From a virus: a stretch of DNA of 64,000 nucleotides. The stretch is taken from the IMG/VR virus record IMGVR_UViG_3300036826_000261, positions 1-64,000 of that record, one strand, 5' to 3'. Below, one piece after another: positions 3,032 through 64,000 of the stretch (within the stretch, counting starts at the first letter, position 1; each line of letters opens with the position of its first letter). The position numbers were made by a program, and so were the translations under genes. The notes beneath the pieces were generated by a model. That model did not search any database. It saw nothing but the letters and a program-made list of their open reading frames with translations, and was not told the origin of the DNA.

Positions 3032-3608
3032 CGTGGTGATGGAACGCAAGGAAGCATTGACGCTGTTTCGCAAGTACAAGGAGCACAAGCATTACTCGAC
3101 GCCGATCGATCGCGAGGTGCAGCGTGCTTATCAGTTGATCAGTCAGGGCCGGCTGGTGATCAAGGCGCTGCAATCGATCGTCGATGCCGGCCTCGATGCC
3201 GATGGGCATCCCAAGCTGGCGATCGCGCCGGCCGATGCCGAGCGGGTGGTATGCCGGATCGAGAGAAATGGTTCGTGCGTGATGGATTCACGAACCGCGC
3301 AAACTTGGAAACGACATGGTGAACGGTTTATCAGTGAGCGTGCTTATGTCGCGTGGCCGCGCGATACGTTTTCCAATGTGCCGAAAGATGTCTGGAACGC
3401 GCAGGCGCAGGTGCCGATGATCCCGCTGCATTTGAAACCGCAGCGCGCTCTGCCGAATTATCACATCCTGTTCGAAGCGGTGTGGACGAAGGCACCGCCG
3501 CTTGATCCGTTGCTGTTGCGCCGGATCGGCAAGGCCGATCTGTGGGTGGTGTGTGCGGCATGGGACTTGACGGAAGTCGAGCGCGGTGCGTTGGCGACAC
3601 GGGTGTGA
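3018..3608 (+). CDS. Conserved hypothetical phage protein
   Basis: GGAGG RBS; C-terminal ILFEA.W...P.DP.LL.RIG..LW.V.AAWDLT..ER motif; start chosen from the RBS. Confidence 0.8.
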   Translation: MQTHNVVMERKEALTLFRKYKEHKHYSTPIDREVQRAYQLISQGRLVIKALQSIVDAGLDADGHPKLAIAPADAERVVCRIERNGSCVMDSRTAQTWKRHGERFISERAYVAWPRDTFSNVPKDVWNAQAQVPMIPLHLKPQRALPNYHILFEAVWTKAPPLDPLLLRRIGKADLWVVCAAWDLTEVERGALATRV

Positions 3609-3879: not shown

Positions 3880-4454
3880 TTAACGTGACAGTTGCAGAGA
3901 TACTTGGTTGTGGATCGCCAACCAACATGCGTCGCAAAAATGATTTCTACGAAACCGAGAGTCAGCACACGCAGGCGTTGCTCGATGCGATTACAATTGA
4001 CGGCCCGGTGTGGGAGCCGTGTGCCGGCAAGGGCGCGATCTCCAGGGTGCTGCGTGCCAACGGTTTCAAGGTGATCGAAAACGATCTGGTGGCATTTCGA
4101 AAGATCACCAAGGCCAATTTTCTGGATGCTACCAGGGCGAAGGCGTCCACCATCATCACCAATCCGCCCTATAAGCACGCGACACGGTTCATCGAACATG
4201 CGCGCTATCTGAATGTGGAATTTCTGGCGTTGCTGTTGAGCGCGCATTTTCTCAACACCGAACTGCGCTACAAGCTCGTGCAGAGCGTCGGTTATCCGAC
4301 GCACATCTACGGCTTGGTCAAGCGTCCGGATTTCACCGGCGAGGGCTCACCGCCGATGGTGTGCAGTTGGTTCGTATGGGAGCGTTGGGGCGCGCGATCG
4401 TCCAAGTTTCGATTGCTGGACAATCGATCGCGTGAGAGGGTTGCATCACGGTGA
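3876..4454 (+). CDS. Putative amino (N6-adenine-type) DNA methyltransferase
   Basis: DFYET, WEPCAGKGAI (SAM-binding) and ITNPPY catalytic motifs. Confidence 0.8.
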   Translation: MINVTVAEILGCGSPTNMRRKNDFYETESQHTQALLDAITIDGPVWEPCAGKGAISRVLRANGFKVIENDLVAFRKITKANFLDATRAKASTIITNPPYKHATRFIEHARYLNVEFLALLLSAHFLNTELRYKLVQSVGYPTHIYGLVKRPDFTGEGSPPMVCSWFVWERWGARSSKFRLLDNRSRERVASR

Positions 4455-4510: not shown

Positions 4511-5011
4511 ATGGCAGCCTTCTGGTCGGTCGCACAGACCGAATCGCAACGCGAGAACGTTGCAGCCGCGTTTTTGAAGCAAGCTAATTTCCAAATCTAT
4601 CTTCCGAAAATTCGAACAGGTCACGGCAAGCGCGAGCGCGTGCTGCCGTTGTTTCCTGGCTATGTGTTTGTCGAGATCGTGGATCGCTGGTACGACATCC
4701 GCTGGACGGTCGGCGTGCTGCAACTGCTGTTGGTCGGCGAGCTGCCGGCGCGTGTGCCCGATAGCGTGATGACGTCGATTCGACGGCAAGAGGGTAAGGA
4801 TGGTTTGGTCAAGCTGCCGAAGCCTCGCGGGCTGGTGCGCGGTGATCCGATACGTGTGTTGCGCGGATCGTTCGAGGGTCGGATCGGTGTCTATCAGGGT
4901 TTAAGCAGTTCGCAGCGCTCGAAAATCCTGCTCAGTCTGCTCGGACGTCAGGTGCCGGTGTTGCTGCCGACGCAAGACGTCAAAGCCTTGGCAGCCTCTT
5001 GCGGTGCTTGA
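4511..5011 (+). CDS. NusG/RfaH-family transcription antiterminator
   Basis: PLFPGYVFV (NGN domain) and KOW-like GDPIRVLRGSFEGRIG; lies ahead of the packaging/late genes. Confidence 0.9.
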   Translation: MAAFWSVAQTESQRENVAAAFLKQANFQIYLPKIRTGHGKRERVLPLFPGYVFVEIVDRWYDIRWTVGVLQLLLVGELPARVPDSVMTSIRRQEGKDGLVKLPKPRGLVRGDPIRVLRGSFEGRIGVYQGLSSSQRSKILLSLLGRQVPVLLPTQDVKALAASCGA

Positions 5012-11530: not shown

Positions 11531-12600
11531 ATCGCCACGTGATCGAGCACACGGCGCCACCGGAGCGTGGTTTTCGACGCAATCCGCTGCCTGTCTCACA
11601 AGGCAACTGTTTTGTGCGCATGCTGACCGCCAAGGTGATTGGCCAGTTGCGCAACATGGCACCGATCTCGGTCGCCACCGGAATGTGGCCGAGCGACAGA
11701 ATCACAGCCGAGATTTTGGAACGCGCATCGAGCGCGCCGGCCATGACGGGCGTAGCCGGTTGGGCTGCCGAGCTGACACAGCGGTTGGTCAGTGACGCGA
11801 TCTCGATCATGAGTGGCGTATCGGCCGGCGCCGAAGTGCTGCGGCGCTGCTTGATGCTGGCGTTGGATCGCAACGGCTTTTTGGTGCCGGGTCTGGTGGT
11901 TGACGCTACCGGCGCTTCGTTTGTCGCTGAAGGTGATCCGATCCCGGTGCACAATCTTGCGACGACGCCAGGATCGATTCCGTTTACCAAGCTCGCCAGC
12001 ATCGCGGTTTTGACAAGAGAAATGGTTGAATCGAGCAACGCCGAAGCGCTGATCGGCAACGCGCTGGGACGTGCAGCCGGTTTGGCGCTCGATGCCGTGC
12101 TGTTTTCCAGCGCCGCCGCGACATCAGCAGCGCCGGCTGGCTTGCGCAACGGCATTGGTGCTTTGACGGCAAGCGTCAACACCGATCCGTTCGCAGCGGT
12201 GTTCGAGGACATGGCAACGCTGTTCAACGCGGTCGGTCAAGTCGGCGGTGCCGGCCCGTTTGTTCTGGTTGCGGGTCCCGGCCGCGCGATAACCTTTTCC
12301 ATGCGGGTCGGCGGTGGCGCACAGTTATCGGTTTATCCGGTGGCGTCCAGCTTCGTCGGCAATGACCTGATCGCGATTGCACCACAGGCGATCGCGGCTG
12401 CGCTCGGCACGGAGCCGGTCATCGAGGCAGCAAAGGCCGGTGTTTTGCATATGGACACGGCGCCATCGGCGTCGCCTTCGGCCGGCGCGCGAAAAGAGAT
12501 GTATCAAACCGATTCGATTGCAGTGAAAATGCACTGGCCAGTATCTTGGCTTTTGCGCGATGCGCGCGGCGTGGCGTGGCTGACGCCGGCCTGGAAGTGA
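11527..12600 (+). CDS. HK97-fold major capsid protein paralogue
   Basis: Shares APAMT.VAGWA.EL, FV.EG..IPV, T.EM, LHM and QTDS.A....PV.W blocks with the capsid domain of 18860-21148. Confidence 0.8.
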   Translation: MNRHVIEHTAPPERGFRRNPLPVSQGNCFVRMLTAKVIGQLRNMAPISVATGMWPSDRITAEILERASSAPAMTGVAGWAAELTQRLVSDAISIMSGVSAGAEVLRRCLMLALDRNGFLVPGLVVDATGASFVAEGDPIPVHNLATTPGSIPFTKLASIAVLTREMVESSNAEALIGNALGRAAGLALDAVLFSSAAATSAAPAGLRNGIGALTASVNTDPFAAVFEDMATLFNAVGQVGGAGPFVLVAGPGRAITFSMRVGGGAQLSVYPVASSFVGNDLIAIAPQAIAAALGTEPVIEAAKAGVLHMDTAPSASPSAGARKEMYQTDSIAVKMHWPVSWLLRDARGVAWLTPAWK

Positions 12601-12605
12601 TCACC

Positions 12606-13799
12606 ATGAAGCATTTCGCGCAGTTCGAGCCGCCATCGCTGCCGCCGGTGGTCGTGGTCGAGCACACGCCGAAAGGCTGGCGCGGTCTGACGGCGGACGG
12701 TCAGGTGCTCAACGTGGAATCCGCCAACGGGCATCCGGTCGAGATTCCATTCGGCGGCAATCTCGCGGTGACACGCGCGGGTCAGATCATCGGCTATCGC
12801 GATATTCCGGAGCAACCGACGCCTGGGCTGATCGACAGCTACACGCGCTGCTATGATTTGGCGCTGCGCGCCGTGAGAGCCGGCAGGCTCGACATGGCAC
12901 TGACCCACGTCGAGACCGCGATATCGTTCGTGCCGACGCTAACCGCGCGCTACAACCGCGGCATGATCCTGCTCGAACTCGGACGCTGGCGCGAAGGCTT
13001 CGACGACTACGCGTACGCGATGGAGTACGACACGTCGCCGTACATGCGTCCGGAGTATCGCACGTGCCTCGAATGGGGATTGAAGCGCTGGCGCGGCGAG
13101 GACCTTCGCGGCAAGCGCATTCTGCTGGTGCACGATCACGGGTTCGGCGATTCGATCATGATGCTGCGCTATGTGCGCGTGCTTCAGGCGATGGGCTCCA
13201 ACGTCACGTTGTGGTTGCCGCCGGAGCTGCAACGGCTGGCGGCGCCGCTGGCGAAGGTCACCGGCGAGATCGTGCACGCGGATTATTTCTGTTCGCTGCT
13301 GTTCCTGCTGCACACGCTGCAGCAGACACCGGCGACGATTCCACTGCAGCCGTATCTGTCGGTCGATACGAAATTGCGCGGCAAGTGGCAGGATCGGGTT
13401 GGGCACAAAAAGCCGATCGGCGTGGCGTGGACGCCGGGCCGGACGCACGATGGCGACTACCCGCGCGCCGTTCCGCTCGAATTGTTGCGCAAGGCGTTGC
13501 CTGACGCCGCGCTGGTCAGCGTGCAGCAGCAGGGCGCTGAAGAAGCGCAGGCGTTCGGTGTCGAGCACTACACGTTCGAGGATTTCGCCGACTGTGCGGG
13601 ACTGATGGCATGTTGCGATCGGATCATCACCGTAGACACCGCCGCCGTCCACCTCGCGGGCGCTGTCGGTCATTCGCGGATTTCGCTGTTGCTTGGTCAT
13701 TGGGCAAGCTGGCGCTGGTTGTCGCCGTTGTACGAGAACGTTTGCATTTATAGGCAGGCGCCGCCGGGTGATTGGAGCGGCGTGCTGAAATTGCTTTGA
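12606..13799 (+). CDS. TPR-containing glycosyltransferase (GT9-like)
   Basis: TPR-like helices; W.GE.L.GKRILL...GFGD.IM.LRY and ITVDTAAVHLAGAVG motifs. Confidence 0.85.
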   Translation: MKHFAQFEPPSLPPVVVVEHTPKGWRGLTADGQVLNVESANGHPVEIPFGGNLAVTRAGQIIGYRDIPEQPTPGLIDSYTRCYDLALRAVRAGRLDMALTHVETAISFVPTLTARYNRGMILLELGRWREGFDDYAYAMEYDTSPYMRPEYRTCLEWGLKRWRGEDLRGKRILLVHDHGFGDSIMMLRYVRVLQAMGSNVTLWLPPELQRLAAPLAKVTGEIVHADYFCSLLFLLHTLQQTPATIPLQPYLSVDTKLRGKWQDRVGHKKPIGVAWTPGRTHDGDYPRAVPLELLRKALPDAALVSVQQQGAEEAQAFGVEHYTFEDFADCAGLMACCDRIITVDTAAVHLAGAVGHSRISLLLGHWASWRWLSPLYENVCIYRQAPPGDWSGVLKLL

Positions 13800-13916
13800 G
13801 TGACGGGGTTGGGGAATCCCGGGGAGCCATCATGAACAGCAACCGTCTGATTCGACGACAGCGGCAACGCGAAGATTTTCTCGATCGTTTTCTCGACGAG
13901 ATCGACGATAAAACAG

Positions 13917-14465
13917 TTGATGAGGACGTGCGGTTTGATCTGGTATCAAAACAGGTTCGAGGTGCTGCGCCACGCGGCGGCGATAACACCCACTGAAGGT
14001 CTGGTGCTTGAGTTCGGCGTGGCTTCAGGAAGCACTGTTCGTTGCTTAGCCGAAACACCAGCATTGTGCGAGCGATCCATCTACGGGTTCGATTCGTTCA
14101 AGGGTTTGCCAGAACCATGGGCGTCGTATCCGGTCGGACATTTCGCTTGCGACATTCCAGAGGTGCCAAAAAATGTCGGGCTCGTGGTGGGGATGTTCGA
14201 ACATACGATCAAGCCGTTTTTGCTGGTTCATCCGAACAACGTTGCGCTGCTTCATATTGATTGCGATCTCTACTCCAGCGCTCGGTGTGTACTTGAGCAG
14301 CTCTCACCCCGAATCGTCTCCGGTACTGTTATCGTGCTAGACGAGTATTTCATTCTTGTTGAGCACGAGCAGCGGGCTTTCAACGAGTGGCTGTCGAAGA
14401 CGGGCCGCAGGTTTCGCAAGGAAGCGCGATCTGTCGAACAGTTGTGCGGCGTGATCGAAAGCTAG
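13917..14465 (+). CDS. Class I SAM-dependent methyltransferase (TylF/MycF-like)
   Basis: LEFGVASG, YGFDSFKGLPE.W, LLHIDCDLYSS and VIVLDEY motifs; start uncertain. Confidence 0.85.
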   Translation: MMRTCGLIWYQNRFEVLRHAAAITPTEGLVLEFGVASGSTVRCLAETPALCERSIYGFDSFKGLPEPWASYPVGHFACDIPEVPKNVGLVVGMFEHTIKPFLLVHPNNVALLHIDCDLYSSARCVLEQLSPRIVSGTVIVLDEYFILVEHEQRAFNEWLSKTGRRFRKEARSVEQLCGVIES

Positions 14466-14502
14466 AAAAGCCTTCTCCCGGAGTTGCAATAGCGGGCGGT
14501 CA

Positions 14503-16914
14503 ATGCTAGATAACAGGCATGGACGAGAACAAACAAACAACCGAGACGGCGGAAGAGCGCGAGAAGTTGTTGAATCAGCTCGACGCGACTGGCCGCAGTC
14601 TGGTCGAGCGGATTCTGGCGCAGCATCCGGAGCTGACGGCGGCGGAAGCGATCGCGCACGTCCAGGAGATGGGCGGGCTGTAGTCTCGCGCGGCGGCGGT
14701 GCTGGCCACGATGTGTCCGGCGAGCCGCGCGACGAGCAGGGCCGTTGGACCGATGGCGGCGGCGATGGTAGCGACAGCTATTCCAGCAGCCCGCCGAGTT
14801 CACGTGAAAAAGACAAGCATGTCGCAGCGGTCTACAAGCCGACTGGCGCTGCGGTTACCGCAGCCAAGAAAGCCGGTCGCACGCCGCTGGAATTTCATCA
14901 ACTGACGGCGGACGGTAATCAGCGTTTCCACGATGCGATCATTAAGGCGAAAGAAAACCTGAAGTTCGGCGCGTCGGTGCATGCCTACGATGCCGCTGAC
15001 TATCGCGGCATGAAGACCTACGTGACGCCCGACGACAAGGCCGGCTTCGCGCTCAAGCCGGACGGTGATATCGTATCCGCATTCAGTCAGTCGAAGGCCA
15101 AGCGCGCCGGTGATTCGATTTTGGCGTTGGCGGTGCAGCACGGTGGCCGCAAGCTCGACGCGTTCGACACGGTGCTGCCGGCGATCTACAGCGACAACGG
15201 CTTTCGCGCAGTGGCGCGGATTCCCTGGAACGAAGAGTACAAGCCGGCCGATTGGGACAAGAACACGTTCAAGAAATTCAACGGCGGCAAGCCGGATGTC
15301 GTGTTCATGGTGCACGATCCGGCAAACGCCGCGCCCTACAAGCCGGGCGACGGCAAGCGCGTGTCGAGTTACGAGGAAGGTGTTGCCGAGCAGGACAAGG
15401 CGCTGAAGGAGATCGAGAAGGGGCGCGAGCATCCGGGCAAGGGCTATTCCCAGAACGCCTATGTCGATCATCAGGGCGTGATTCACACCTCGAACGTTTA
15501 TGACGCGCAGCGCGCGCTGTTCGAGGATCGCAAGGTCGAGCTGACGCAGGTCAAGCAGATATCGACCTTGATCAAGCGGCTCGGTGAGACCGCCGCGGAG
15601 ATGGCCGAGCACGGTGAAACTGCGCCGACCTTCAATCTCTGCAACGTCAGCGTCAAGGGCACCAACTTGTTTTGCGCCGACCAGATTGGCATTCCGCGCG
15701 TCGAGATGCCGGTGATCCGCGCCGGCAAGACCAAGGACTTCATCAAGCATCTCAAGAAGCTTGGCTACAAGATCGAAGAGACCAAGGAGGAAGCGCGCAA
15801 TCTTCGTGCCACACAGAACGAGATCAGTGGTACTAAGGTCGCTGCCGCGATGGCGCGGATCAAGCAGGAAGGTTTCTACAAACGTCTCGTGGTGTCGCGT
15901 GATGATTACATTCTCGATGGTCATCATACCTGGGCTGGTCAGCTCGGGCTCGACGCCAAGGATGGCGATCTCGAAGATGACGGCCGCGAAGTCAAGATCG
16001 CGCGGGTCGATATCTCGATCACCAAGTTGCTCGAAGAAGCCGAGAAGTGGACCGGCGGCGCCGGCAAGAAGCCGGCCAGCGAAGCGCCAAAGGGTTATCA
16101 GTTCGTCACGCTGCGCGAGGCGCAGCGGTTACTGGACGTGACGACCTACCAGAAGTTCGTCCTGATTGCGGGGCAGTTTCTTACAGCCAATGGCCATCTC
16201 GCGCGTGGCATCGAGAACATTCGGATCACGGTGCCGATTGCGCGCGAGTTTGACGACGCGCTGCATCCGCATCAGCCGGCCGGGCAGGGTGGTGGTCAGT
16301 TCGCGCCGACCGGCGGCAGTGACAAGCCGGCGGCGCCGAAGAAGCCGGCGGCGTCGCCGGCAGCGGCAGCAGAACCGGCTCAACTACAACCTGAACCTCC
16401 GGGATACGGATTGTCGCCAGCCGAGCACGACAAGCTCGATGATTGGACAATGGGCGAGCCGAAATCGGCGGCCTACAGCAAGATGCGCAAAGACCCGAAG
16501 ATGATCGCGATCATGGCCAAGCTGCCCAAGTACGAGGGCACGGTTTATCGCGGCACATCGTTCTACAAAGGCAAGATCGGTTCGATCAAGGTCGGGAGCA
16601 TCGAAGACATCATCGGCAAGACGTTCGATATCTCCAAGCTGTCATCGTCATCGACTGATGGTGCAAAGGCTGCGGAATTTGCTGTAAATGACGTGCTGAG
16701 CCCGACGACCGGTGAGCTGAAAAAAGGCTATACGGCCGTGGTTTTCAAGATGGATCAGATGAGTGGACATCAGGTGCCGTCGGATATCGATCGCGGCGTC
16801 GAGAAAGAAGTCGTGCTGATGCCGCACACTACTTTTCAGGCGATCAATGTCGCCGATATGACGGAAGCGACCAATGGTGTGAAGTACAAAGAAGTCACGA
16901 TGAGGGAAGTATGA
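14503..16914 (+). CDS. Polyvalent protein with GNAT-like, ParB/Srx-like and C-terminal ADP-ribosyltransferase-like domains
   Basis: EPRDEQGRWT motif; GGRKLDAFDTVLP.IY...GF; LRATQ.EI and D.YILDGHH.W; LPKYEGTVYRG...SSSS...EKEVVL (R-S-E ART pattern); the true start is probably near 14700. Confidence 0.75.
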   Translation: MLDNRHGREQTNNRDGGRAREVVESARRDWPQSGRADSGAASGADGGGSDRARPGDGRAVVSRGGGAGHDVSGEPRDEQGRWTDGGGDGSDSYSSSPPSSREKDKHVAAVYKPTGAAVTAAKKAGRTPLEFHQLTADGNQRFHDAIIKAKENLKFGASVHAYDAADYRGMKTYVTPDDKAGFALKPDGDIVSAFSQSKAKRAGDSILALAVQHGGRKLDAFDTVLPAIYSDNGFRAVARIPWNEEYKPADWDKNTFKKFNGGKPDVVFMVHDPANAAPYKPGDGKRVSSYEEGVAEQDKALKEIEKGREHPGKGYSQNAYVDHQGVIHTSNVYDAQRALFEDRKVELTQVKQISTLIKRLGETAAEMAEHGETAPTFNLCNVSVKGTNLFCADQIGIPRVEMPVIRAGKTKDFIKHLKKLGYKIEETKEEARNLRATQNEISGTKVAAAMARIKQEGFYKRLVVSRDDYILDGHHTWAGQLGLDAKDGDLEDDGREVKIARVDISITKLLEEAEKWTGGAGKKPASEAPKGYQFVTLREAQRLLDVTTYQKFVLIAGQFLTANGHLARGIENIRITVPIAREFDDALHPHQPAGQGGGQFAPTGGSDKPAAPKKPAASPAAAAEPAQLQPEPPGYGLSPAEHDKLDDWTMGEPKSAAYSKMRKDPKMIAIMAKLPKYEGTVYRGTSFYKGKIGSIKVGSIEDIIGKTFDISKLSSSSTDGAKAAEFAVNDVLSPTTGELKKGYTAVVFKMDQMSGHQVPSDIDRGVEKEVVLMPHTTFQAINVADMTEATNGVKYKEVTMREV
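14519..14683 (+). CDS. 54-aa hypothetical protein (absent from the ORF track)
   Basis: Manual translation MDENKQTTETAEEREKLLNQLDATGRSLVERILAQHPELTAAEAIAHVQEMGGL*; overlaps the doubtful 5' end of the 803-aa ORF. Confidence 0.55.
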   Translation: MDENKQTTETAEEREKLLNQLDATGRSLVERILAQHPELTAAEAIAHVQEMGGL

Positions 16915-23881: not shown

Positions 23882-25628
23882 TGCGTGGCGCAAGATTCTC
23901 GGCGAAACGCTGGCGGAAGAGCGCGCCAATTGGCAGCGCAGTCGCGAATTGTCGGAAGCGCGATCCGCGCAGATCATCGCCGAGCTGAAGACGCAATCGA
24001 TGCAGCTCGTCACCGAGCTGGCGACGCGCACGTTCGAGTTGGAGCGCAAGCTTGAAGCATTGGTGCATCAGAAGTTGTCCGATGCCGAAGTCATGATAAA
24101 AGATCGCTTGTCCAACTTGCGCGATGGTGCGCCCGGCGAGAAGGGTGAGCGCGGCGAGCGCGGCGAGAAAGGTGATCCGGGTGGCATCGGGTTAACAGGG
24201 CCGCAAGGCTATGCCGGTGAACGCGGCGAAAAGGGTGAACGCGGTGCTGTAGGTGCGCCCGGGCCGCAAGGATCGCAGGGCGAGCGCGGCGAGAAGGGCG
24301 AGCGCGGTGACGTTGGTACTGTCGGGGAGACGGGCGAAAAAGGTGATCGGGGCGAGCGGGGCGAACCAGGAGAAAGAGGCGAACATGGCGAAAAAGGCGA
24401 GCAAGGCGAAAAAGGCGAGCAAGGCGAAAAGGGCGAGCGCGGCGAACAAGGACCGCGCGGTGAAGCGGGTACGCCCGGGCGGCAAGGCGAAAAAGGCGAA
24501 AAAGGCGAAGCGGGCGAGGACGGCAGCGACGGACTGACCATCATCGGACCCGAAGGCCCGTGCGGGCCTTCCGGTCCGCGTGGTGAGCGCGGCGAGACCG
24601 GGCGGGAAGGTCTGCGCGGTCAGCCGGGCGCAATGGGTCCGGTCGGCGGGCAAGGCCCGCGCGGCGAACCGGGCGAGCCCGGTGCACCGGGTGCGGATGG
24701 CCCGGCAGGTCCGGCAGGCTCGGTCGGTCCAAGCGGACCACCGGGCGAGTCCGGCGCACCGGGCGATATCGGCCCGATGGGTCTGCGCGGACCTATGGGC
24801 GAGCGCGGTGAGCGCGGTGAGCGCGGCGCCAAGGGCGATCCCGGCGATATCGTGATCGGTCCGCAAGGGCCTGCAGGCGAACGTGGTGAGCGCGGCGCAC
24901 CGGGCGCGCATGGTCCGACAGGTCCGGTCGGTCCACGCGGTGAACAGGGCAAGCCGGGGCGTGACGGAGTTGACGGAGTACGCGGCGCACCGGGCGCGCA
25001 TGGTCCGACAGGTCCGGCTGGTCCGCGCGGCGAGCCGGGTCTACCTGGGCGTGACGGAGCTGACGGAGCGCGCGGCGCCGATGGCGCACGTGGCGCCGAC
25101 GGCGCGCCGGGGCGTTTGCCGCCGGTCAAGCAGTGGCAAGCCGACGTCGTGTATTATGCCGGCGACGTGGTGAGCCACGAGCGCGGATCGTATCAGGCGC
25201 TGAAAGACACCAGCCGGCAGCCGGGCCGTAATCACGATTGGATTTGCATCGCCAGCGGCGGCGTCGATGCACGGTCGCCGCATGTGCGCGGCACCTATGA
25301 TCCAACGGCCAGCTATCAGGCGCTCGACATCGTTGTCAGCAACGGCGGCAGTTTCATCGCCAGGAAAGACGATCCGGGCGAGCTGCCGGGCGACGGCTGG
25401 CAATTGATGGCGCGGCAAGGCCAGCGCGGCGTTGCCGGCGAGAAGGGCGAACGCGGCGAGCCCGGCGCACCGGGAGCGAAAGGCGAGCCCGGCGAGGTGG
25501 TGTTCAAGGGCTGGACCCATGACTGGAAAAACTTCGTTGCCGTGCCGCTGATGGCCGATGGCAAGCGTGGTCCGACCTTGGAGCTGCGCGGTTACTTCGA
25601 GCAATTCCAGAAAGACACCGATGGCTGA
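23802..25628 (+). CDS. Collagen-like (Gly-X-Y) virion protein
   Basis: Long GEKGERG/GPXG tracts; C-terminal Y..GDVV...GS and GTYDP...Y..LDIV modules. Confidence 0.88.
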   Translation: MTMQPQSNGKADEFLLPPPESTDILLDAWRKILGETLAEERANWQRSRELSEARSAQIIAELKTQSMQLVTELATRTFELERKLEALVHQKLSDAEVMIKDRLSNLRDGAPGEKGERGERGEKGDPGGIGLTGPQGYAGERGEKGERGAVGAPGPQGSQGERGEKGERGDVGTVGETGEKGDRGERGEPGERGEHGEKGEQGEKGEQGEKGERGEQGPRGEAGTPGRQGEKGEKGEAGEDGSDGLTIIGPEGPCGPSGPRGERGETGREGLRGQPGAMGPVGGQGPRGEPGEPGAPGADGPAGPAGSVGPSGPPGESGAPGDIGPMGLRGPMGERGERGERGAKGDPGDIVIGPQGPAGERGERGAPGAHGPTGPVGPRGEQGKPGRDGVDGVRGAPGAHGPTGPAGPRGEPGLPGRDGADGARGADGARGADGAPGRLPPVKQWQADVVYYAGDVVSHERGSYQALKDTSRQPGRNHDWICIASGGVDARSPHVRGTYDPTASYQALDIVVSNGGSFIARKDDPGELPGDGWQLMARQGQRGVAGEKGERGEPGAPGAKGEPGEVVFKGWTHDWKNFVAVPLMADGKRGPTLELRGYFEQFQKDTDG

Positions 25629-50504: not shown

Positions 50505-51311
50505 ATGAAGTACAACTCGCCATGGAACGATCCGGACACCAACGATCCTTATGTCAACGGCCAGCCGGCGCAGGGCGTCGAAGGCAGCGTGATTCCGGCC
50601 GAATCGATCGAGTACCCGCAGCGCGAGATCGTCAACACCATCGCGCAGAACGGTTTCTTTCCGACCAACAGCGACACCAATCAGCTCGGTCGCGCGGTGC
50701 AGCTCGATCTGTGCAACTTCGGGGTCGATTACGGCATCGCCAACGAAATGGCCGTGACGCTCGATCCGACGCCGCTCAACTATCATGTCGGTCTGAAGAT
50801 TTTCATTCTGGTCGCGCAGGCGAACTCCGGCGCGACCGTGCTCAATGTTAACGGGCTCGGCGCGGTGCCGGTGCGGCATCCTGATTTGACCGAGCTGTCG
50901 CCGGGTGACGTGATCCCCGGCGGCATCGCGCTGGTCTATCACGACGGCACGCAATTCCAGCTCTTGTTCGGCGCCAAGTCGGCGGCGGGGCCGGCAGGAC
51001 CGCAAGGCGCCACCGGACCGGCAGGAGCGACCGGCGCGACCGGCGCCACCGGCGCGACCGGCGCCAAGGGCGACAAGGGCGCGACCGGGCCGCAAGGCCC
51101 GTCAGGCGCACCGGCTTCGCTGATCGTCGGGCTCGGCGGCATCGGCTCGTATTTGTTCAACATCACCTATCTGGGCGTCTACGACGATTCGAGCCTGACC
51201 TACGCGATCAATCAACTGGGCTACGGCGGCACCTGGGCGCAGCACGGCATCGTGCAGCAAGGCTGGTTCTCCGGCGCGCTGGCCGAGTTCTTAGGCCAGA
51301 GGATCGCGTGA
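50505..51311 (+). CDS. Tail fibre protein 1
   Basis: YVNG...G..GS.IP...IE.PQREIVN; N.GA..LN.NG.G; short collagen tract. Confidence 0.8.
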
Positions 51312-52141
51312 TGCAGTACAATCCGCCGTGGGACGCCTTCGAGGCGGGACTGTTCGACGCGCCTTATGTCAACGGCGACGAGCACAAGGGCATCGCCGGC
51401 AGCATCATTCCGCCGCAGGCGATCGAGCTGCCACAGCGCGAGATCGTCAACTTCATCACGCAGAACGACATCAGCCCGTCCAATGCCGATCTCACGCAGC
51501 TCGGTCGCGCGCTGCAGCTCGATCTGTGCAACTACGCGGTTGACACCGGCGTGCCGAACGCGCTTGCCGTGACGATCGATCCGACGCCGAAAACTTATCA
51601 GGCCGGTCTGAAGCTGTTCATTCTGGTCAACTACGCCAACACCGGCGCCACGACATTGGTGATCAACGGCATCTCGCCGGTGCATCCGGTGCCGGTGCGG
51701 CATCCCGGCGGCGTGGTCGAGCTGGCGCCGAACGATCTGTTACCGAACGCCATTGCGCTGGTCTATTACGACGGCACGGTGTTTCAACTGCTGTTCTCGG
51801 CGCGGCCGACCGCAGGACCAGCCGGCGCGATCGGTGCGCAAGGTCCGCAAGGCGCCACTGGCGCCACCGGCGCCACCGGGGCGAAAGGCGTCAGAGGCGA
51901 CACCGGTGCCGCCGGGCCGCCCGGTCCGGCGGGCAGTTCAGCCGGACTGATCGTCGGCTATGGCGGCGTCGGCAGTCTGGGCTTCTTCAACACTTACTAT
52001 TCGATCTATGACGCCACGTCCTTGAACTACGCGCTCAACGCGCTGCTGGGCGTCGGCGGCACGTGGTCGGATCGCGGCACCGTGACGCAAGGCTGGTACT
52101 CCGGCGCGTTGACCGAGTTCATGGCGCAGAGGATCGCATGA
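51311..52141 (+). CDS. Tail fibre protein 2 (full-length paralogue of fibre 1)
   Basis: Same motifs end to end, including QGW.SGAL.EF..QRIA. Confidence 0.8.
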   Translation: MQYNPPWDAFEAGLFDAPYVNGDEHKGIAGSIIPPQAIELPQREIVNFITQNDISPSNADLTQLGRALQLDLCNYAVDTGVPNALAVTIDPTPKTYQAGLKLFILVNYANTGATTLVINGISPVHPVPVRHPGGVVELAPNDLLPNAIALVYYDGTVFQLLFSARPTAGPAGAIGAQGPQGATGATGATGAKGVRGDTGAAGPPGPAGSSAGLIVGYGGVGSLGFFNTYYSIYDATSLNYALNALLGVGGTWSDRGTVTQGWYSGALTEFMAQRIA

Positions 52142-52479
52142 TCAACACCACGCGCACCATCGTCTCGGCTGTCAATCCGGTCCGCTATCAGGATGATTTC
52201 GCGGTGTGGCTGAAGGTCTGGTTCGAAGAGTTGAGCGAACCAGTGCTGTTCTGCGCGATCCCGTTCGATGTCGAAGTGCACGGCCGCGAGCTGTGGATCA
52301 GGGCGATGGCCGGCGAATACGGCCCGGTCGATGTGCGGCCGAAGCCTGACATGCCGGTCGGCCGGTTCAAGATCACGCGGCTGCCGGGACCGCGACTGAT
52401 CCAGATGATCGAGAGCAAGCAGTTCTGTTGCGAGCCGCTGGCCGATGACGATACCAACGGGCCGATCAAATGGCGATGA
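52138..52479 (+). CDS. Tail fibre assembly/chaperone-like protein
   Basis: DVE.HGRELW..A.AGEYGP motif; directly after the fibre genes. Confidence 0.65.
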   Translation: MINTTRTIVSAVNPVRYQDDFAVWLKVWFEELSEPVLFCAIPFDVEVHGRELWIRAMAGEYGPVDVRPKPDMPVGRFKITRLPGPRLIQMIESKQFCCEPLADDDTNGPIKWR

Positions 52480-52841
52480 CGCTTGATCTAACCACCTATA
52501 CCGATTCCGATCTGGTCGAGAGCTTCATCTATCAGCTCGTGGACGGCACGCCGATCGATCTGACCGGCTACTCGTTGCGCATGCACGTGCGCAAGCACGC
52601 GGAAGACGCTACCGCGCTGTTCGAGTGCTCGACCTTCAACGGACTGATCTGGTGGAATGATATCGTGGGCGGCGCGTTCACCCTGCAGATACCCGTCGCG
52701 ATCCTGGTATCGCTGTCGCCCGGCACCTACACGCAATCGCTGATCGCCACGCAGCCGGTGTCGCTGCTGCGGCGTGATTTGTGGCGCGGCTCGTTGATCC
52801 ACGCCGCCGGTCCGACACGTTGGGATTTGGGCACGCTATGA
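52470..52841 (+). CDS. BppU-like Ig-fold protein
   Basis: [10 protein letters not shown]...M.VR motif. Confidence 0.65.
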
Positions 52842-54124
52842 CCAGAAAAATTATCGGCGAACAACACCCCAACGTGCGGGCGGGCACCAGTCCGCCGCAT
52901 CCTGCGCAAACCGATTCGACCGTGCCGGTCACCGACGTGGTGCAGATCGGTCCGCCGGGGCCGCCCGGCCCGAACGGTCCGCCGGGACCGCCCGGCCCGA
53001 CTGGCGCGGTCGGGCAGACCGGTCCGCAGGGGCCGCAAGGCCCGCAGGGACCGCAAGGCCCGCAGGGCTCGCAAGGCCCGCAGGGACCATCCGGGCCGCC
53101 CGGCGGCCTCGGCGAAGCGCCGAGCGACAGCACGTCCTACGGCCGCAGAAACGCGGCGTGGTCGTCGGTCACCGAAGAGGCGCCGAACGACGGCCAGACC
53201 TACGGTCGCAAGAACAAGGCATGGGTGGTCGGCGGCGGCGGTGGCGCCACGGTCACCGCGTCGGATACGCCGCCGGGCTCGCCGAGCGCCGGCAGCCTGT
53301 GGTTCAACACAACCAACGGCCAGCTCTACATCTATTTCAACGACGGCACATCGTCGCAATGGGTGTTCGCGTCGGGTGGCGTGCAGAATCAACCGCAGGT
53401 GCCGCGCGGCGCGCTCGGCGGGTTGACGCTGTCCACGGCGGGCAGTTCGGCGACGTTCACGGTGCAGCCCGGACGCGCTGCGGATTCCACCGCTGCATTG
53501 CTGATGAACCTCGCATCGGCGATGAACAAGACCACCAGCGCATGGGCGGCGGGCAGCGGCAACGGCGCGCTCGACACCGGCGCGATCAGCGCGGCGGCTT
53601 GGTACCATGTCTTTTTGATCATGAACCCGACGTCGGGCGCGGTCGATATCCTGATCTCGCTGTCGGCGACGGCACCGACCATGCCGTCCGGCTACACGCT
53701 GTTCCGGCGCATCGGCTCGATGCTGACCGCGTCGTCGCTGTGGGTGAAATTTTCGCAGCGCGGCGACGAATTTTTGTGGGATGCGCCGGTCGTCAACGCC
53801 AGCGCAGTCGCGTTCACCGTGACTGCGACATTGCTGGCGCTGGGTGTGCCGCCGGGGATTCAGGTCAACGCGTTCGGGCAGGTGCGCGCCGACTACGCCA
53901 CCAACGCGGCGACTTTCACGCTGTCATCGCCGGACATCACGGCGCCGGTGGTCGGCAGCGCCACGTCATCGTTGGTGGTCTCGGGTACTTCCACCAACTC
54001 GGTCAGTTACTTCAACATCCGCACCAACACCGCGCAGCAAATCCGTTATCAGGCCAACGGCACCGGTCCGACCTTCAGCCTGGGCACGTTCGGCTGGATC
54101 GATCGTCGCGGCAAGGACGATTAG
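52838..54124 (+). CDS. Tail fibre/spike protein with collagen and fibritin-foldon-like motifs
   Basis: GPQ tract; two EAP.D...YGR.N.AW motifs; G.LWF.T..G.LYIY; MPSGYT..RRIGS. Confidence 0.8.
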
Positions 54125-59953: not shown

Positions 59954-60418
59954 ATGGGGGTGCCAGTGGAGCAACTGGAGATCACGTTCGGTGGTCCGCT
60001 GCGCATTGTCGTGGAGCAACCGCAGCCGACCGACATCACAGCCCGGCTGACAATCATCATCAACGGTTTCAAGATCACAGGAGAACGCCTGATGTACACG
60101 CTGCCCGTCGATCATTTCGCGCAAATGGAAGTCTCTTACGTCGATGCCAAGGGCAACCCGGCCGAGATCGACGGCCCGGTGACGTGGCAGTCGTCGGACG
60201 ACACGGTCGTAACGCTCGATGTCGATCAGTCGGATTCCTCGATCGTCAAGGTGACGCCGGTCGGCAAGATCGGACAGGTGCAGATCACCGCGACCGCAGA
60301 CGCCGATCTCGGCGCCGGTGTCAAAACCCTGGTCACGCCATGCGATATCGAAGTTGTCGCCGGAGAGGCAGTTGCCGGCACCATCCAGCCGCTCGGTGAG
60401 CCTCAGCCGATCGGATAA
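59954..60418 (+). CDS. Ig-like domain protein
   Basis: D..GNPA..DG...W.SSD and ADADLG.GV motifs. Confidence 0.7.
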   Translation: MGVPVEQLEITFGGPLRIVVEQPQPTDITARLTIIINGFKITGERLMYTLPVDHFAQMEVSYVDAKGNPAEIDGPVTWQSSDDTVVTLDVDQSDSSIVKVTPVGKIGQVQITATADADLGAGVKTLVTPCDIEVVAGEAVAGTIQPLGEPQPIG

Positions 60419-60443
60419 CTCTGAACCAGCAAAGGAGACTTGA

Positions 60444-61178
60444 ATGGCGACCATGTCGAAAAAGGCAATCATCACCTGGGAGACCGACGACGGCAGCGGG
60501 CCGCCGGTCGGCATCTGGCCGGAGCCGGGCTATCCGGCGCACCCGATTGCGCCGGGCGGACCGCCGCCGGGCGTGTGGCCGGGACCGGGCTATCCGGCGC
60601 ACCCGATCGTGATTCCGCCGGACAAGCCCGGTGAGCCGCCGACCGTGATCTGGCCGGGGCCGGGCTATCCGGCGCATCCGATCGCGCCGGGCGGACCACC
60701 GCCGGGTTATTGGGGTGGCGTGGCGCCGCCGTTGCCGACACATCCGATCGCACCGGGTGGACCGCCGCCGGGCATCTGGCCGGGGCCGGGCGTGCCGACG
60801 CCGCCGATCCATTATCCGCCGATCATCTGGCCGCAGCCGCCGGAGGGCGGACCGCCGATCGCGATCGATCCGGGACATCCCGAACATCCGATCGTAATTC
60901 CGACACCGCCCGGCACGGTGTGGCCGCCGGATGCATCTATCGAGCATCCGATCGTGCTGCCGCTGCCGCCGGAAATCTGGCCGAAGCCGGGGGTGCCGAC
61001 GCATCCGATCGTGATTCCGCCGGAGCAGCCACCGGAGAAGCCGCAACTGATCACGTGGTATGCCGGCTGGTCGGACAAGACCGGTTGGGTCGTGGTCGGC
61101 GTGCCGAACGTGCCGCATCCGACGCCGTCGAAGGCCGGCGGACCGGGCGGACCGGGCGGGCCGAAGAAAGGGCCATGA
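60444..61178 (+). CDS. Proline-rich repeat protein
   Basis: AGGAG RBS; repeated WPGPGYPAHPI and P.HPIV.P units. Confidence 0.8.
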   Translation: MATMSKKAIITWETDDGSGPPVGIWPEPGYPAHPIAPGGPPPGVWPGPGYPAHPIVIPPDKPGEPPTVIWPGPGYPAHPIAPGGPPPGYWGGVAPPLPTHPIAPGGPPPGIWPGPGVPTPPIHYPPIIWPQPPEGGPPIAIDPGHPEHPIVIPTPPGTVWPPDASIEHPIVLPLPPEIWPKPGVPTHPIVIPPEQPPEKPQLITWYAGWSDKTGWVVVGVPNVPHPTPSKAGGPGGPGGPKKGP

Positions 61179-61220
61179 CGTCGCCGTAAACAACCGTTTC
61201 AACCTTCCTCCCTAGACTTG

Positions 61221-61257
61221 AGCCGGGTGGCCCTCCAAGCGCCCGGCTTTCTTTTTT
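61221..61257 (+). terminator. Rho-independent terminator ending the late/lysis operon
   Basis: AGCCGGG...CCCGGCT stem followed by TTCTTTTTT. Confidence 0.85.
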
Positions 61258-61362
61258 GCCTGCACGATGTTTTTGCCGGCGAAAAATTTTCTTGACTTTT
61301 CGCCAAACCCGTCGCTCGCTTCCCGGATTCGTAAAATCAAAATGCTAAAGGGAGAGAAGCAA

Positions 61363-62241
61363 ATGGCGAAAAAGGCACCCGTCAGTGAAATCATCGAAAT
61401 CCAAGCTATCGAAATGGCGTCGCTGGATTTCCATGTGGTCGGCACCAGCCCGTTCATCATGCATCGCTTCAGTCAGAAGGCGTGGCAGGAATTGCTGCTG
61501 CCGTCGATCCGCGAAAACCGCGCTAGTCTCGAACAGAAGCTCAAGCATGATCCGTATGCAGAATTTCGTGGCGCGTTCTATCGCAACAGCAATCCGCGCG
61601 CCAAGACGGCGTACCATATTCCAAACGGCGCGTTTCACGGCGCGATCGCCAGCGCCGCGCTCGACATGCCGGGTGCCAAGAAGGCGCAGATCGAGCGGTT
61701 GACCAAGATCACCAGCGTCAACATCGAACTGTATGGCATCCCGAAAATCTTTTGCAGCATGGTGCGTAACAGCGACATCTCGCGCACGCCAGATGTGCGC
61801 ACCCGGCCGATCTTCCCGCGCTGGGCGTGCACGGTTTCGGTGCGCTACGCGAAGAACGCGTTGACGGCCAAAGCCGTCGCCAATCTGTTCGGCGCGGCGG
61901 GCGAGATCATCGGCATCGGTGATTGGCGCGGTCAGAAGGGCGGACCGTTCGGCGCGTTCCGCACCAACGTGTCGGTGAACGATAAAGAGTTCAAGAGCAT
62001 CTTGAAGGAAGGCCGCGTCGCGCAATTGAAAGCTTACGACAAACCGTTGTTCTACGATGAAGACACGGAAGAAATTTTAACGTGGTTCGCCACCGAGGTG
62101 CGCCGCCGTGAGTTGGAAGGCAAGATGCGCAGCGATAACGTCAAGGAGTTTCGCGTTATCACCGAGCGCGGCAAGGAGCGCGGCAACGGCGAGTTGGTGA
62201 GCCTTGACGACAAGCGGCGGACCCGTCGAAAGGCCGCGTGA
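61363..62241 (+). CDS. Stand-alone RAMP/Cas7-like RNA-binding effector protein
   Basis: First-strand motif VVGTSPFIMH, helix motif IP..AF.GAI..AA, RPIFPRW and C-terminal Gly-rich loop AGEIIGIGDWRGQKGGPFG.F; GGGAG RBS; adjacent to the GGY-NN array. Confidence 0.8.
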   Translation: MAKKAPVSEIIEIQAIEMASLDFHVVGTSPFIMHRFSQKAWQELLLPSIRENRASLEQKLKHDPYAEFRGAFYRNSNPRAKTAYHIPNGAFHGAIASAALDMPGAKKAQIERLTKITSVNIELYGIPKIFCSMVRNSDISRTPDVRTRPIFPRWACTVSVRYAKNALTAKAVANLFGAAGEIIGIGDWRGQKGGPFGAFRTNVSVNDKEFKSILKEGRVAQLKAYDKPLFYDEDTEEILTWFATEVRRRELEGKMRSDNVKEFRVITERGKERGNGELVSLDDKRRTRRKAA

Positions 62242-62735
62242 TGGCGAAAGCCACCAAACACGACCGCATCAAAGCGGCGTTGGAAGCGATCAGGCGCTCG
62301 CATCGCGGGCGCTTGACGGCGCGGGCCGTGGTCGAGGCGGCCAAAAATCCTAGGCACCCGTTGCACAGTGAATTTGAATGGAACAACCAGAAAGCAGCGG
62401 ATCAGCAACGCTTGGAGCGTGCGCGCGAACTAATCAGATACGTCACGGTCGTGGTCGTTGATGCAACGCGTAAAGTCGAAACACGATTTTATGCGCACGA
62501 TCCGCGAACGCCGCATCGTGAAGGCTATGTCAGCATCTTGGAGATGAACCGCCGCGATGCTGAACAAGATGTGGTCAACGCTATCGCGATCTGTCAATCG
62601 ACGATCGATCGCGCGCTCAGCAAAGCGGAATTTCTCAGCGCGAAGCATCGTGGTGTTTCACGATTGTTGAAAAATGCAGTTGCTACCCTTGCCGCCGCGC
62701 ATGATCTGCTCGAAGGCTCGGCGGCAGCGGCGTGA
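62238..62735 (+). CDS. Partner protein of the RAMP-like gene
   Basis: LT...VV.AA.....PLH..FEW....AA...RL..AR.LIR motif; GTGA overlap with the RAMP gene. Confidence 0.8.
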   Translation: MMAKATKHDRIKAALEAIRRSHRGRLTARAVVEAAKNPRHPLHSEFEWNNQKAADQQRLERARELIRYVTVVVVDATRKVETRFYAHDPRTPHREGYVSILEMNRRDAEQDVVNAIAICQSTIDRALSKAEFLSAKHRGVSRLLKNAVATLAAAHDLLEGSAAAA

Positions 62736-62740
62736 AGTCA

Positions 62741-62961
62741 TAGGCATGGCAGGCTAGGCAAGGTGCGGCCCGGCCGGAGTAGGTTCGGTGCGGCAAGGCA
62801 GGCATGGCCCGGGAGACGCGGTGAAGCGTGTCCGTGATCTGGTAGCGTCGGGTAAGGCGGCGTTGGATGGGGTGAGGCGAGGCAGGCTTGGTCAGGTCTG
62901 ACGAGACTGGGCGCGGTAGGTTTTGGCGCGGTACGGCAAGGCGTGATGCGGTAAGGCAGGC
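62741..62961 (+). ncRNA. GGY-NN guide array, block 1 (three units)
   Basis: TAGGCATGGCAGGC leader; GGCA delimiters at 62748, 62797, 62881 and 62955; 5-nt periodicity. Confidence 0.85.
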
Positions 62962-63219
62962 ATGGCCAGAAACACAGCGGATAAGGTTCTCGAAAACAAG
63001 TTGCGGCTGATCGCCAAACGGCGGGGTTTGTTTCTTTCGAAATCCCGTCGTCGCGATCCGTTTGCGCTCGACTTTGGTTATGAGTTGAGAGACGCGCAAC
63101 AGCACGTCATCGAAACAGCGTGCAGTCTTACTCGAATCGAAAACTTGTTAGCTCTCGGTCGGACGGGGCGGAAACGTTTAACAGTCGAAGGATGGCGTCA
63201 CATCATCCTTGGTAAGTAG
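62962..63219 (+). CDS. Small basic protein embedded in the guide array
   Basis: KV.EN.LR..A.R.GL.L.KSRRRDP.A.D.G motif; non-repetitive sequence between the two array blocks. Confidence 0.7.
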   Translation: MARNTADKVLENKLRLIAKRRGLFLSKSRRRDPFALDFGYELRDAQQHVIETACSLTRIENLLALGRTGRKRLTVEGWRHIILGK

Positions 63220-64000
63220 GCATGGCAGGCGTGGCCGGGCCGGGTTGTCCCCGGTGTGGCAGAGCATGGCAGCGCAGGGTTGACATGGCAGGGCAGGCAG
63301 GGTCCGTCGTGGTCGCGCGGGATTGGGCGGGGCAAGGCACGGCACGATGCTGGTCTGGCGAGGCGTGGCAGGCATGGCTGGATCAGGCGTGACGAAGCTT
63401 GGTGTAGCTAGGCCGGGTGCAGTGTAGGCATGGCGAGGCAGGCGCGGCGGGACAAGGTCCGATATGGCGTGGCGCGGTCTGGTTCGGTCTGGCCGGGTTT
63501 GGCAGGCAAGGTGCGTCGAGGCCAAACATGGTGTGACAAGGTACGGCGCGGCCTGATCTGGGCTCGACTGGGCAGGCGCGGTGGGTTCTGGCTCGACATG
63601 GTTAGGCGAGGCCCGGTGATGCCCGGCATGTTGAAGTGCGTCCTGGCAGGCGTGGCGGGGGTGCGTGCGAGGCGGGACCGGGCAAGGTCGGGCACGTTAT
63701 ATGGTCTGGCTGGGCACGGCTTGGCGGGTCACGGCAAGGCACGGCCGGCAAGGTTTGTCCGGAACCGGTTTGGCTTGGCGAGATGCGATTAGGCGAGGCG
63801 AAGCGAGGCCGGCTAAGCGTGACTTGGTCGGGTAGACGTGGCCGGGCACGGTAGCGGCGTGGATCGGCCGGCGACGCTAGGCTTGTCGTCGATCGGCATG
63901 ACATGGCGCGGCACGGCGAGGCGTGGTTCGGCCGGCGCGATTAGGTGTGGTCGGAATCGGCATGGCTCGGTGTCGCGTGGTCTGGCGTGGCTCGGCTGGG
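63217..64000 (+). ncRNA. GGY-NN guide array, block 2 (at least 11 units, truncated by the window end)
   Basis: Leader TAGGCATGGCAGGC; GGCA/GGCC delimiters at 63224, 63292, 63367, 63437, 63501, 63571, 63645, 63743, 63807, 63866 and 63930; many units are exactly 4+5n nt. Confidence 0.9.

Follow-up and report, generated by a model that had tools for sequence, protein, structure and literature searches.

VIPR (Viral Interference Programmable Repeat) is a mostly phage-encoded system described in two preprints of 2026 (10.64898/2026.04.26.720920, 10.64898/2026.04.26.720927). A small ancestral RAMP protein, Vipr, polymerises on a guide RNA, the vrRNA, with one protomer per repeat, and each vrRNA consists of 9 to 16 YNNGG repeats in which the GGY is sequestered and the NN pairs with double-stranded DNA (10.64898/2026.04.26.720920). 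Pairing follows a 1-nt skip rule, in which every third target base is passed over, mostly the wobble position of a codon, and targets lie on either strand, with no PAM, in competing phages, prophages and satellites (10.64898/2026.04.26.720920). The outcome demonstrated in the same preprint is transcriptional repression, with dsDNA binding and silencing from either strand, and perturbation of the GGY motif abolished silencing (10.64898/2026.04.26.720920). Natural vrRNAs, frequently degenerate internally, are described there as converging on their targets, and the natural targets characterized belong to two kinds, genes of satellites and regulators of the lysis-lysogeny decision; the main text of that preprint contains no instance of the word "integrase" (10.64898/2026.04.26.720920). 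Seven VIPR types are distinguished, some of them with "staggered" arrays in which vrRNAs overlap by 1 nt, as worded in the legend of fig. S18 (10.64898/2026.04.26.720920). The companion preprint reports an R-loop triplex on DNA and the roles of the residues with which the Vipr of Escherichia phage SUSP1 holds the GGY (G1, G2 and Y3) (10.64898/2026.04.26.720927). Across these 2026 preprints, activity is demonstrated for the SUSP1 and P. fulva type II systems only.

The DNA analyzed here, referred to as the window, is a stretch of 64,000 nucleotides corresponding to bases 1 to 64000 of a single 72,692-base (72.7-kb) virus genome rated 98% complete. PHROG matches identify the phage as a soil myovirus with a contractile tail, the matched genes on the + strand comprising primase-helicase, terminase, portal, major head protein, tail sheath, baseplate, collagen-like tail fibers and endolysins. 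This + strand gene block reaches 62735, and a minus-strand block spans 72653 down to about 65576. A long array of five-nucleotide units occupies the gap where the rightward and leftward gene blocks meet, in a G-rich stretch without convincing coding signal. We consider it very likely that one interval of this array, 63224 to 63291, is a vrRNA guide of a phage-encoded VIPR system, antisense to box I of P4-type integrase genes and probably silencing integrases. The features of the locus are as follows.

61363 to 62241, + strand: vipr, encoding a Cas7-like RAMP protein, assigned from fold, hhalign and phrog_4652 (the ORF opens at 61267; the likely start is 61363).
62241 to 62735, + strand: vap-like accessory gene, 165 aa, conserved beside vipr and arrays (phrog_15946).
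62738 to 62962, + strand: predicted vrRNA array, block A, NNGGY pentamers, from period-5 power and unit parse.
62962 to 63219, + strand: 85-aa orphan ORF between the array blocks, from the ORF list.
63218 to 64000, + strand, continuing past the window to contig position 65175: predicted vrRNA array, block B, from period-5 power and unit parse.

Elsewhere in this genome, a NusG-like protein is encoded at window positions 4511-5011 (Pfam NusG, E value of 4e-15; PHROG "transcription antiterminator"), and the tail-fiber genes with collagen-like GGX repeats, at 50505-54124 and 24192-25500, have a 9-nt periodicity. On the minus strand, contig positions 69163-72653 (L001 9163-12653) carry dNMP phosphatase-like, DUF7768 / nucleoside 2-deoxyribosyltransferase-like and TSCPD-domain genes, and these annotations hint at nucleotide or DNA-base metabolism. 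No tRNA gene was found by a tRNA scan, an Rfam scan gave two weak rows only (E values of at least 3), and promoter and terminator scans produced no signal above shuffled sequences. Searching the phage DNA collection with positions 60000-64000 returned 0 matches.

The protein encoded by vipr had no Pfam match, and PADLOC (2023) gave weak Cmr6 rows only, for one relative. Its affiliation came from structure and profile comparison. The AF2 model of the window protein (pLDDT of 84, pTM of 0.77) had 47 Foldseek matches in the PDB with E values below 1e-3, the best being 7.7e-6, and every listed match is to a RAMP of CRISPR systems (Csm3, Cmr, Cas7-11 and type VII Cas7), in keeping with the RAMP fold of Vipr (RRM core, glycine-rich loop and thumb). 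In an hhalign comparison, for which the query was an alignment headed by the window protein (A1) and the SUSP1 gene was reached via a relative from locus L010, the window protein and SUSP1 Vipr (YP_009199429.1) aligned over 175 columns with 99.7% probability and an E value of 3.7e-27. Window residues H34, R146/R148 and D187-W188-R189 align with H17, thumb R138 and D177-W178-R179 of SUSP1 Vipr, and the family as a whole conserves an N-terminal strand that ends in His and, C-terminally, a glycine-rich loop, G-x-G-D-[WFY]-R. Judged from this alignment, the window RAMP is a Vipr homologue with the same GGY-binding residues.

The best structural matches thus come from the Cas7 backbone of CRISPR effectors (Csm3/Cmr4 of type III, Cas7-11 and type VII), with which Vipr shares one protomer per RNA repeat and a base-flipping thumb (10.64898/2026.04.26.720927). 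The likeness does not extend to the guides: CRISPR backbones have a 6-nt period with 5 contiguous pairing bases, whereas the units of the window have a 5-nt period with 2 pairing bases. Furthermore, CRISPR systems take up spacers through Cas1-Cas2 and have repeats and several Cas proteins, and the window has no cas genes and no CRISPR repeats.

The vap-like protein downstream of vipr is less easily placed. Its model (pLDDT of 87) shows a winged-helix-like N-terminal domain followed by a long helical hairpin; Foldseek gave no match with an E value below 1e-3, VIA-align returned generic helical hairpins only, and Pfam gave nothing. A related-locus search with the protein found no relative, and a profile HMM of the family detected it at 21 of the 134 array loci listed from other viruses (see below). 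No similarity was found to the protein encoded downstream of SUSP1 vipr.

The array begins 3 nt after the vap-like gene and extends for about 2.2 kb of noncoding DNA with the consensus NNGGY. The period-5 power of G in 100-nt windows is 2 to 4 within it, compared to a window-wide median of 0.14, and 14 of the 15 in-phase GGNNN runs of at least 5 units in the 72.7-kb genome fall within the array, all 14 on the + strand. Of the 441 units resolved by a dynamic-programming parse, 383 are pentamers, and the rest are tetramers (40), hexamers (17) and a single heptamer. In the pentamers, the first two positions are near-random, with all 16 NN pairs occurring; G occupies the third position in 90% and the fourth in 81%, and the fifth is a pyrimidine (C or T) in 95%. 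Tandem YNNGG repeats as in VIPR, with GGY conserved and NN hypervariable, lie beside vipr in the same orientation. The 85-aa ORF that separates the two blocks has no Pfam, PHROG or PADLOC match and no homologue at the other 134 array loci; it is basic, its ATG falls inside a pentamer unit, and it could be either an orphan gene or a chance ORF.

How would such a long array be divided into guides? A one-base slip, GGCAGGC, recurs every 64 to 75 nt (13 to 14 units) across 63224-63645, a spacing that fits the staggered form of vrRNA array, and the array may hold about 30 to 40 guides in this form. In the staggered arrays of other VIPR types, known to us from the figure legend only, vrRNAs overlap by 1 nt, each beginning where its predecessor ends (10.64898/2026.04.26.720920). 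In the window, the slips lie 64 to 75 nt apart and the match described below begins right after one of them; processing at these sites is putative. The locus can also be compared with that of SUSP1, a type II system. Both loci have a homologous small RAMP with the same GGY-binding residues, GGY/NN pentamer guides beside the gene, one skipped base at the codon wobble position and targets, predicted in the case of the window, in competing mobile elements. SUSP1, however, has four vrRNAs, about 100 nt in length and all bearing a conserved 3′ tail and a pseudoknot, whereas the window has about 441 units in 2.2 kb, one-base slips and no tail; neither a conserved 3′ tail nor a SUSP1-type pseudoknot was recognizable in the window's array. 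The two loci also differ in that their accessory proteins are unrelated and that the target predicted for the window is a catalytic motif of integrases.

Arrays of this kind are found in many other viruses. Searching IMG/VR for eight in-phase GGY units yielded at least 134 loci, many of which hold arrays of 200 to 1,500 nt. On the period-5 measure the window's array scores 2075, compared to no more than 1500 among the 134 listed loci, which were taken with flanks of at most 2 kb each, and it is the longest among the 135 array loci compared here. An all-against-all comparison of flanking ORFs revealed two protein families that adjoin the arrays, on the G-rich strand; profile HMMs placed the Vipr-like family at 77 of the 134 listed loci and at 60 of the 81 with at least 2 kb of sequence. 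Some of these loci differ in layout. The arrays of L004, L010 and L076 are modular, about 13 pentamers plus a conserved structured element of 40 to 55 nt occurring 3 to 5 times ahead of an ORF, and that of L026 runs for about 800 nt without any phase slip. The module is also present in isolated phages. Pseudomonas phage LESphi2 (L136) has three pentamer runs of about 13 units with structured spacers at 3075-3395, upstream of a Vipr-like gene that adjoins the cI repressor gene. In Gordonia phage Ecliptus (L137), an array of about 44 units lies at 4115-4335, between genes 19 and 20, among tail genes. The module genes of both phages are annotated "hypothetical."

An array of this shape might serve without guiding anything, either as a decoy for the Vipr of rival phages or as a structural DNA or RNA element, such as a G-quadruplex or a Rho/terminator buffer between convergent operons. 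Its position where gene blocks converge, its G-rich sense strand and its lack of tails would suit such a role. We regard it as highly improbable, since the array lies directly behind vipr and vap-like genes of the phage itself, in the same orientation, a Vipr-like gene likewise stands beside 60 of the 81 listed loci mentioned above, and the NN content matches a gene family exactly and in a frame-aware manner (see below), which neither a decoy nor a structural element needs. Other candidate explanations, namely, a TRAP-like attenuator or ring-protein binding run, a Rho utilization buffer between convergent operons, G-quadruplex or R-loop DNA, and Chi-like decoys or origin iterons, were dropped after the RAMP gene and the VIPR preprints.

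The interval 63224-63291 is exactly one unit of the putatively staggered array, bounded by GGCAGGC slips at 63224 and 63292, and together with the letters at its 3′ end it can be divided into three parts.

63224 to 63230, + strand: one-base phase slip GGCAGGC, the likely 5′ boundary of the putative anti-integrase vrRNA; its NN unit agrees with the targets in 0 of 2 letters.
63231 to 63280, + strand: ten units that form the predicted core of the guide against integrases, antisense to L-L-[I/M]-L-T-G-Q-R-R-T codons, with 20 of 20 letters matched in 13 of 13 places.
63281 to 63293, + strand: 3′ part of the guide in the window allele, a degenerate unit plus a one-base deletion; the eleventh unit matches 2 of 2 letters only in target L148, which therefore reaches 22 of 22 letters.

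Over 63231-63285, the NN letters of the + strand are GT CG CG TG CC GT AG AT AG AG TG, and reverse-complemented they become CA CT CT AT CT AC GG CA CG CG AC, with AT and CT lying beyond a one-base phase slip. Read as the reverse complement with a 1-nt skip, the core decodes to L-L-[I/M]-L-T-G-[H/Q]-R-R-T. The Arg of TGxR in this motif, box I, is the first catalytic arginine of tyrosine recombinases. The GG is imperfect in 4 of the 11 guide units (TGTCC, AGAGC, AGCGC and TGACA). A sequence-only reading of the same interval had listed the reverse-complemented NN pairs, and rereading the letters shows the list to be literally right, one irregular unit being also readable as TG/CA. The decoding rule proposed in that reading, with NN giving codon positions 1 and 2 and the wobble base skipped, is the published 1-nt skip rule of VIPR (10.64898/2026.04.26.720920). 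As for the peptide it had derived, the core LL[I/M]LTG[H/Q]RRT has exact natural matches, and the N-terminal "L-I-x", as read from the window allele, is matched in 0 of the 12 target genes.

To define natural targets, the ten units at 63231-63280 were converted into a gapped pattern of 20 specified letters with a 1-nt skip and searched against IMG/VR viral contigs and against species-representative genomes totaling 596 billion bases. Exact matches numbered 13, in 2 IMG/VR contigs of the same sequence and at 11 places in the genome collection. Ten of the 11 genome record titles name alphaproteobacterial groups (Aquibium, Beijerinckiaceae, Aestuariivita, Xanthobacteraceae twice, Rhodospirillales, Acetobacteraceae, Thioclava and uncultured Alphaproteobacteria twice), and the remaining one is labeled only Pseudomonadota. 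The ORFs that contain the 13 matches are 353 to 464 aa long; in each case the match is in frame, the skipped base is the third of its codon, and the context is LL[IM]LTGQRRTE[VI]. Each of the 12 distinct ORFs matches PF00589 (Phage_integrase) with 35 to 80 bits against a cutoff of 27.1, and each also carries the arm DNA-binding domain PF13356, which identifies them as P4-type tyrosine integrases. Third codon positions vary among the targets, meaning that the matched integrases are independent DNA sequences. In the viral contigs, where the real pattern gave 2 matches, patterns with a 2-nt skip, with a 0-nt skip and in reversed order gave 0 each. With up to 2 mismatches allowed, the real pattern was found in 8 of 401 genomes of the class, compared to 2 for a backwards control, and 6 of these 8 matches translate to L-T-G-x-R-R, as read from the matched strings.

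These results bear out the anti-integrase interpretation put forward in the sequence-only reading: the gapped-pattern search placed 13 of 13 matches in frame at integrase box I, and all three control patterns gave none in viral contigs. The same reading had counted this guide as the third one directed against integrases, for which we find no support, as no other guide of the array reached 17/20 on the 12 integrase loci. Nor did the other guides reach 18/20 in the surroundings of about 7 to 20 kb of the 13 matches, where their 17/20 matches stayed at decoy level, and two further well-formed guides had 0 exact matches in viral contigs. A general preference of the system for catalytic motifs, also proposed in that reading, would reach beyond the one guide for which targets are described here.

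A short string of dinucleotides could resemble a common motif by accident, with the real target, if any, elsewhere. Box I is among the commonest conserved motifs in prokaryotic DNA, and this commonness raises the prior of a chance decode. About 30 to 40 guides read in two orientations against many abundant motifs also leave room for coincidence, and no second guide matches the same elements. By our own arithmetic (596 billion bases, two strands, 4^20), about one random match per 20-letter pattern is expected in the genome collection, but that single match would fall anywhere, and the observed matches fall 13 of 13 at one motif and in one frame. Controls with the pairs backwards, reordered or read with another skip yielded 0 to 2 matches. 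We therefore hold a chance resemblance to be very improbable, and an allele from another soil population, which took no part in the search, speaks further against it.

Six soil-metagenome DNA runs contain the stretch; among the sequencing runs, none of the RNA runs did. Contigs from four of the soil runs were aligned to 62600-64000. The core, 63231-63278, has zero differences in all four. Neighboring guides do differ between populations: over 63022-63787, run X5 shows 45 substitutions together with 18 gaps, and nearly all of those listed lie at 63345-63735. A low-depth contig of run X3 lacks 250 nt between 63239 and 63490, which may reflect a contraction of the array. The allele of run X4 has one insertion and five substitutions at 63275-63291, through which the phase break disappears and 13 in-phase units result, decoding to [IM]-V-[NK]-[FL]-L-[IM]-L-T-G-[HQ]-R-R-T. 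Among the 12 integrases, four agree with this allele at 25 of 26 letters, those with IVK or MVK before LL[IM]LTGQRRT. Its three added units account for 6 of 6 letters in these four, a coincidence of about 1 in 4,000 per target, and the targets had been chosen on the ten core units only. The X4 allele provides independent support, at the level of sequence, for an integrase target.

The same comparison raises the question of whether the allele in the window is still functional. Lineages of this phage may formerly have targeted integrases, the window's guide being a decaying or inactive copy disabled by the deletion and the imperfect GGY motifs. A clean GG is missing from four of its 11 units, the phase is lost beyond the eleventh, and the X4 allele is cleaner, with 13 in-phase units and a larger match; in the published system, perturbation of GGY led to loss of silencing (10.64898/2026.04.26.720920). 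Decay would not readily explain, however, why the 10-unit core is identical in all four soil runs while the neighboring guides vary heavily, and the core's three imperfect units occur in the X4 allele as well. In addition, natural vrRNAs are often internally degenerate, and ten units remain within the published range of 9 to 16 (10.64898/2026.04.26.720920). A decayed copy is accordingly unlikely in our judgment, and a working guide, which in the window allele matches 10 to 11 of about 13 units, is the reading that we prefer.

If the guide is active, the phage itself does not appear among its targets. The sequence-only reading had stated that no integrase lies in the window, and had pointed to the phage's own integrase outside it as a sequence to compare with the guide. 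No integrase is present in the window or in the whole genome: neither tyrosine nor serine recombinases (PF00589, PF00239) were found in the 98% complete sequence. The anti-integrase guide has 0 matches in its own genome with up to 3 mismatches. When all guides were compared to the genome, the best score was 17/20, equal to the decoy level. Having no integrase of its own, the phage probably silences those of resident elements.

From the preprints or by reasoning, we infer transcription, processing, filament formation, DNA binding, silencing and purpose as follows. Rightward transcription of the array, followed by cleavage at the one-base slips, would yield RNAs of roughly 13 units, in which each GGY would be bound by one Vipr protomer with the NN pair exposed. 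The NN pairs would then base-pair with one strand of dsDNA, skipping every third base, so that the guide 63231-63285 would come to lie over box I (LL[I/M]LTGQRRT) of P4-type integrase genes, antisense to the coding strand. The bound filament would block transcription, and integrase expression of resident prophages, satellites or islands would be shut off in the presumably alphaproteobacterial soil host, hindering the excision or integration of rivals.

The filament might instead act on RNA, the Vipr-vrRNA complex binding or blocking the integrase transcript rather than the gene. At all 13 matches the vrRNA corresponds to the reverse complement of the coding strand, so an mRNA target is formally possible, and the nearest fold relatives, Csm3 and Cmr4 of type III, act on RNA. 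Against this, the published system has natural targets on both strands, binds dsDNA and silences from either strand (10.64898/2026.04.26.720920), and its filament forms an R-loop triplex on DNA (10.64898/2026.04.26.720927). Action on the transcript appears improbable to us, and binding to the integrase gene remains our preferred mode.

The skipped wobble base would allow a single guide of 10 to 13 units to recognize box I of at least 12 integrase genes that diverge at the DNA level. This leads to a broader proposal, which we advance tentatively and with slightly less than even confidence: VIPR guides may act as broad-spectrum silencers at the level of protein motifs, giving an integrase-less phage "pan-integrase" control, and the array may be a fast-evolving library in which the anti-integrase core is kept. 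The matched integrases come from several groups of Alphaproteobacteria, and such control, if real, would extend over prophages, satellites and islands. In such a library, in-place editing would alter guides from one soil population to another, with the core against integrases retained.

VIPR itself has been known since April 2026. To it, this locus adds a tail-less array of very large size from an uncultured myovirus of soil, a candidate Vap family unlike that of SUSP1, a concrete and checkable predicted natural target (the catalytic box I of P4-type integrases, with all 13 matches in frame), and population data in which the anti-integrase core is fixed and neighboring guides are variable. If confirmed, skipping of the wobble base would let one guide span a whole gene family, and silencing of integrases would be a weapon between mobile elements. 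Decoding the NN pairs of such arrays may yield testable target predictions for other loci. A parallel exists in phage ICP1, which carries a CRISPR-Cas system aimed at the PLE satellite of Vibrio cholerae. There, too, a virulent phage directs an RNA-guided system against a parasitic integrative element of its host. The machinery of ICP1 is different and destroys DNA, whereas the window's system presumably represses, and the ICP1 spacers match one element rather than a shared protein motif.

The surroundings of the targets give some indication of what these elements are. A tRNA gene adjoins the integrase in 4 of the 13 target contexts, and this adjacency, together with primase-like neighbors, fits integrative elements. 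In one IMG/VR provirus (L171), two P4-type integrases lie back to back at 11987-15508. The integrase with the exact match is followed by primase-like genes, and the second, which scores 17/20, stands beside prophage head and tail genes, an arrangement that suggests a satellite-like element integrated next to a prophage.
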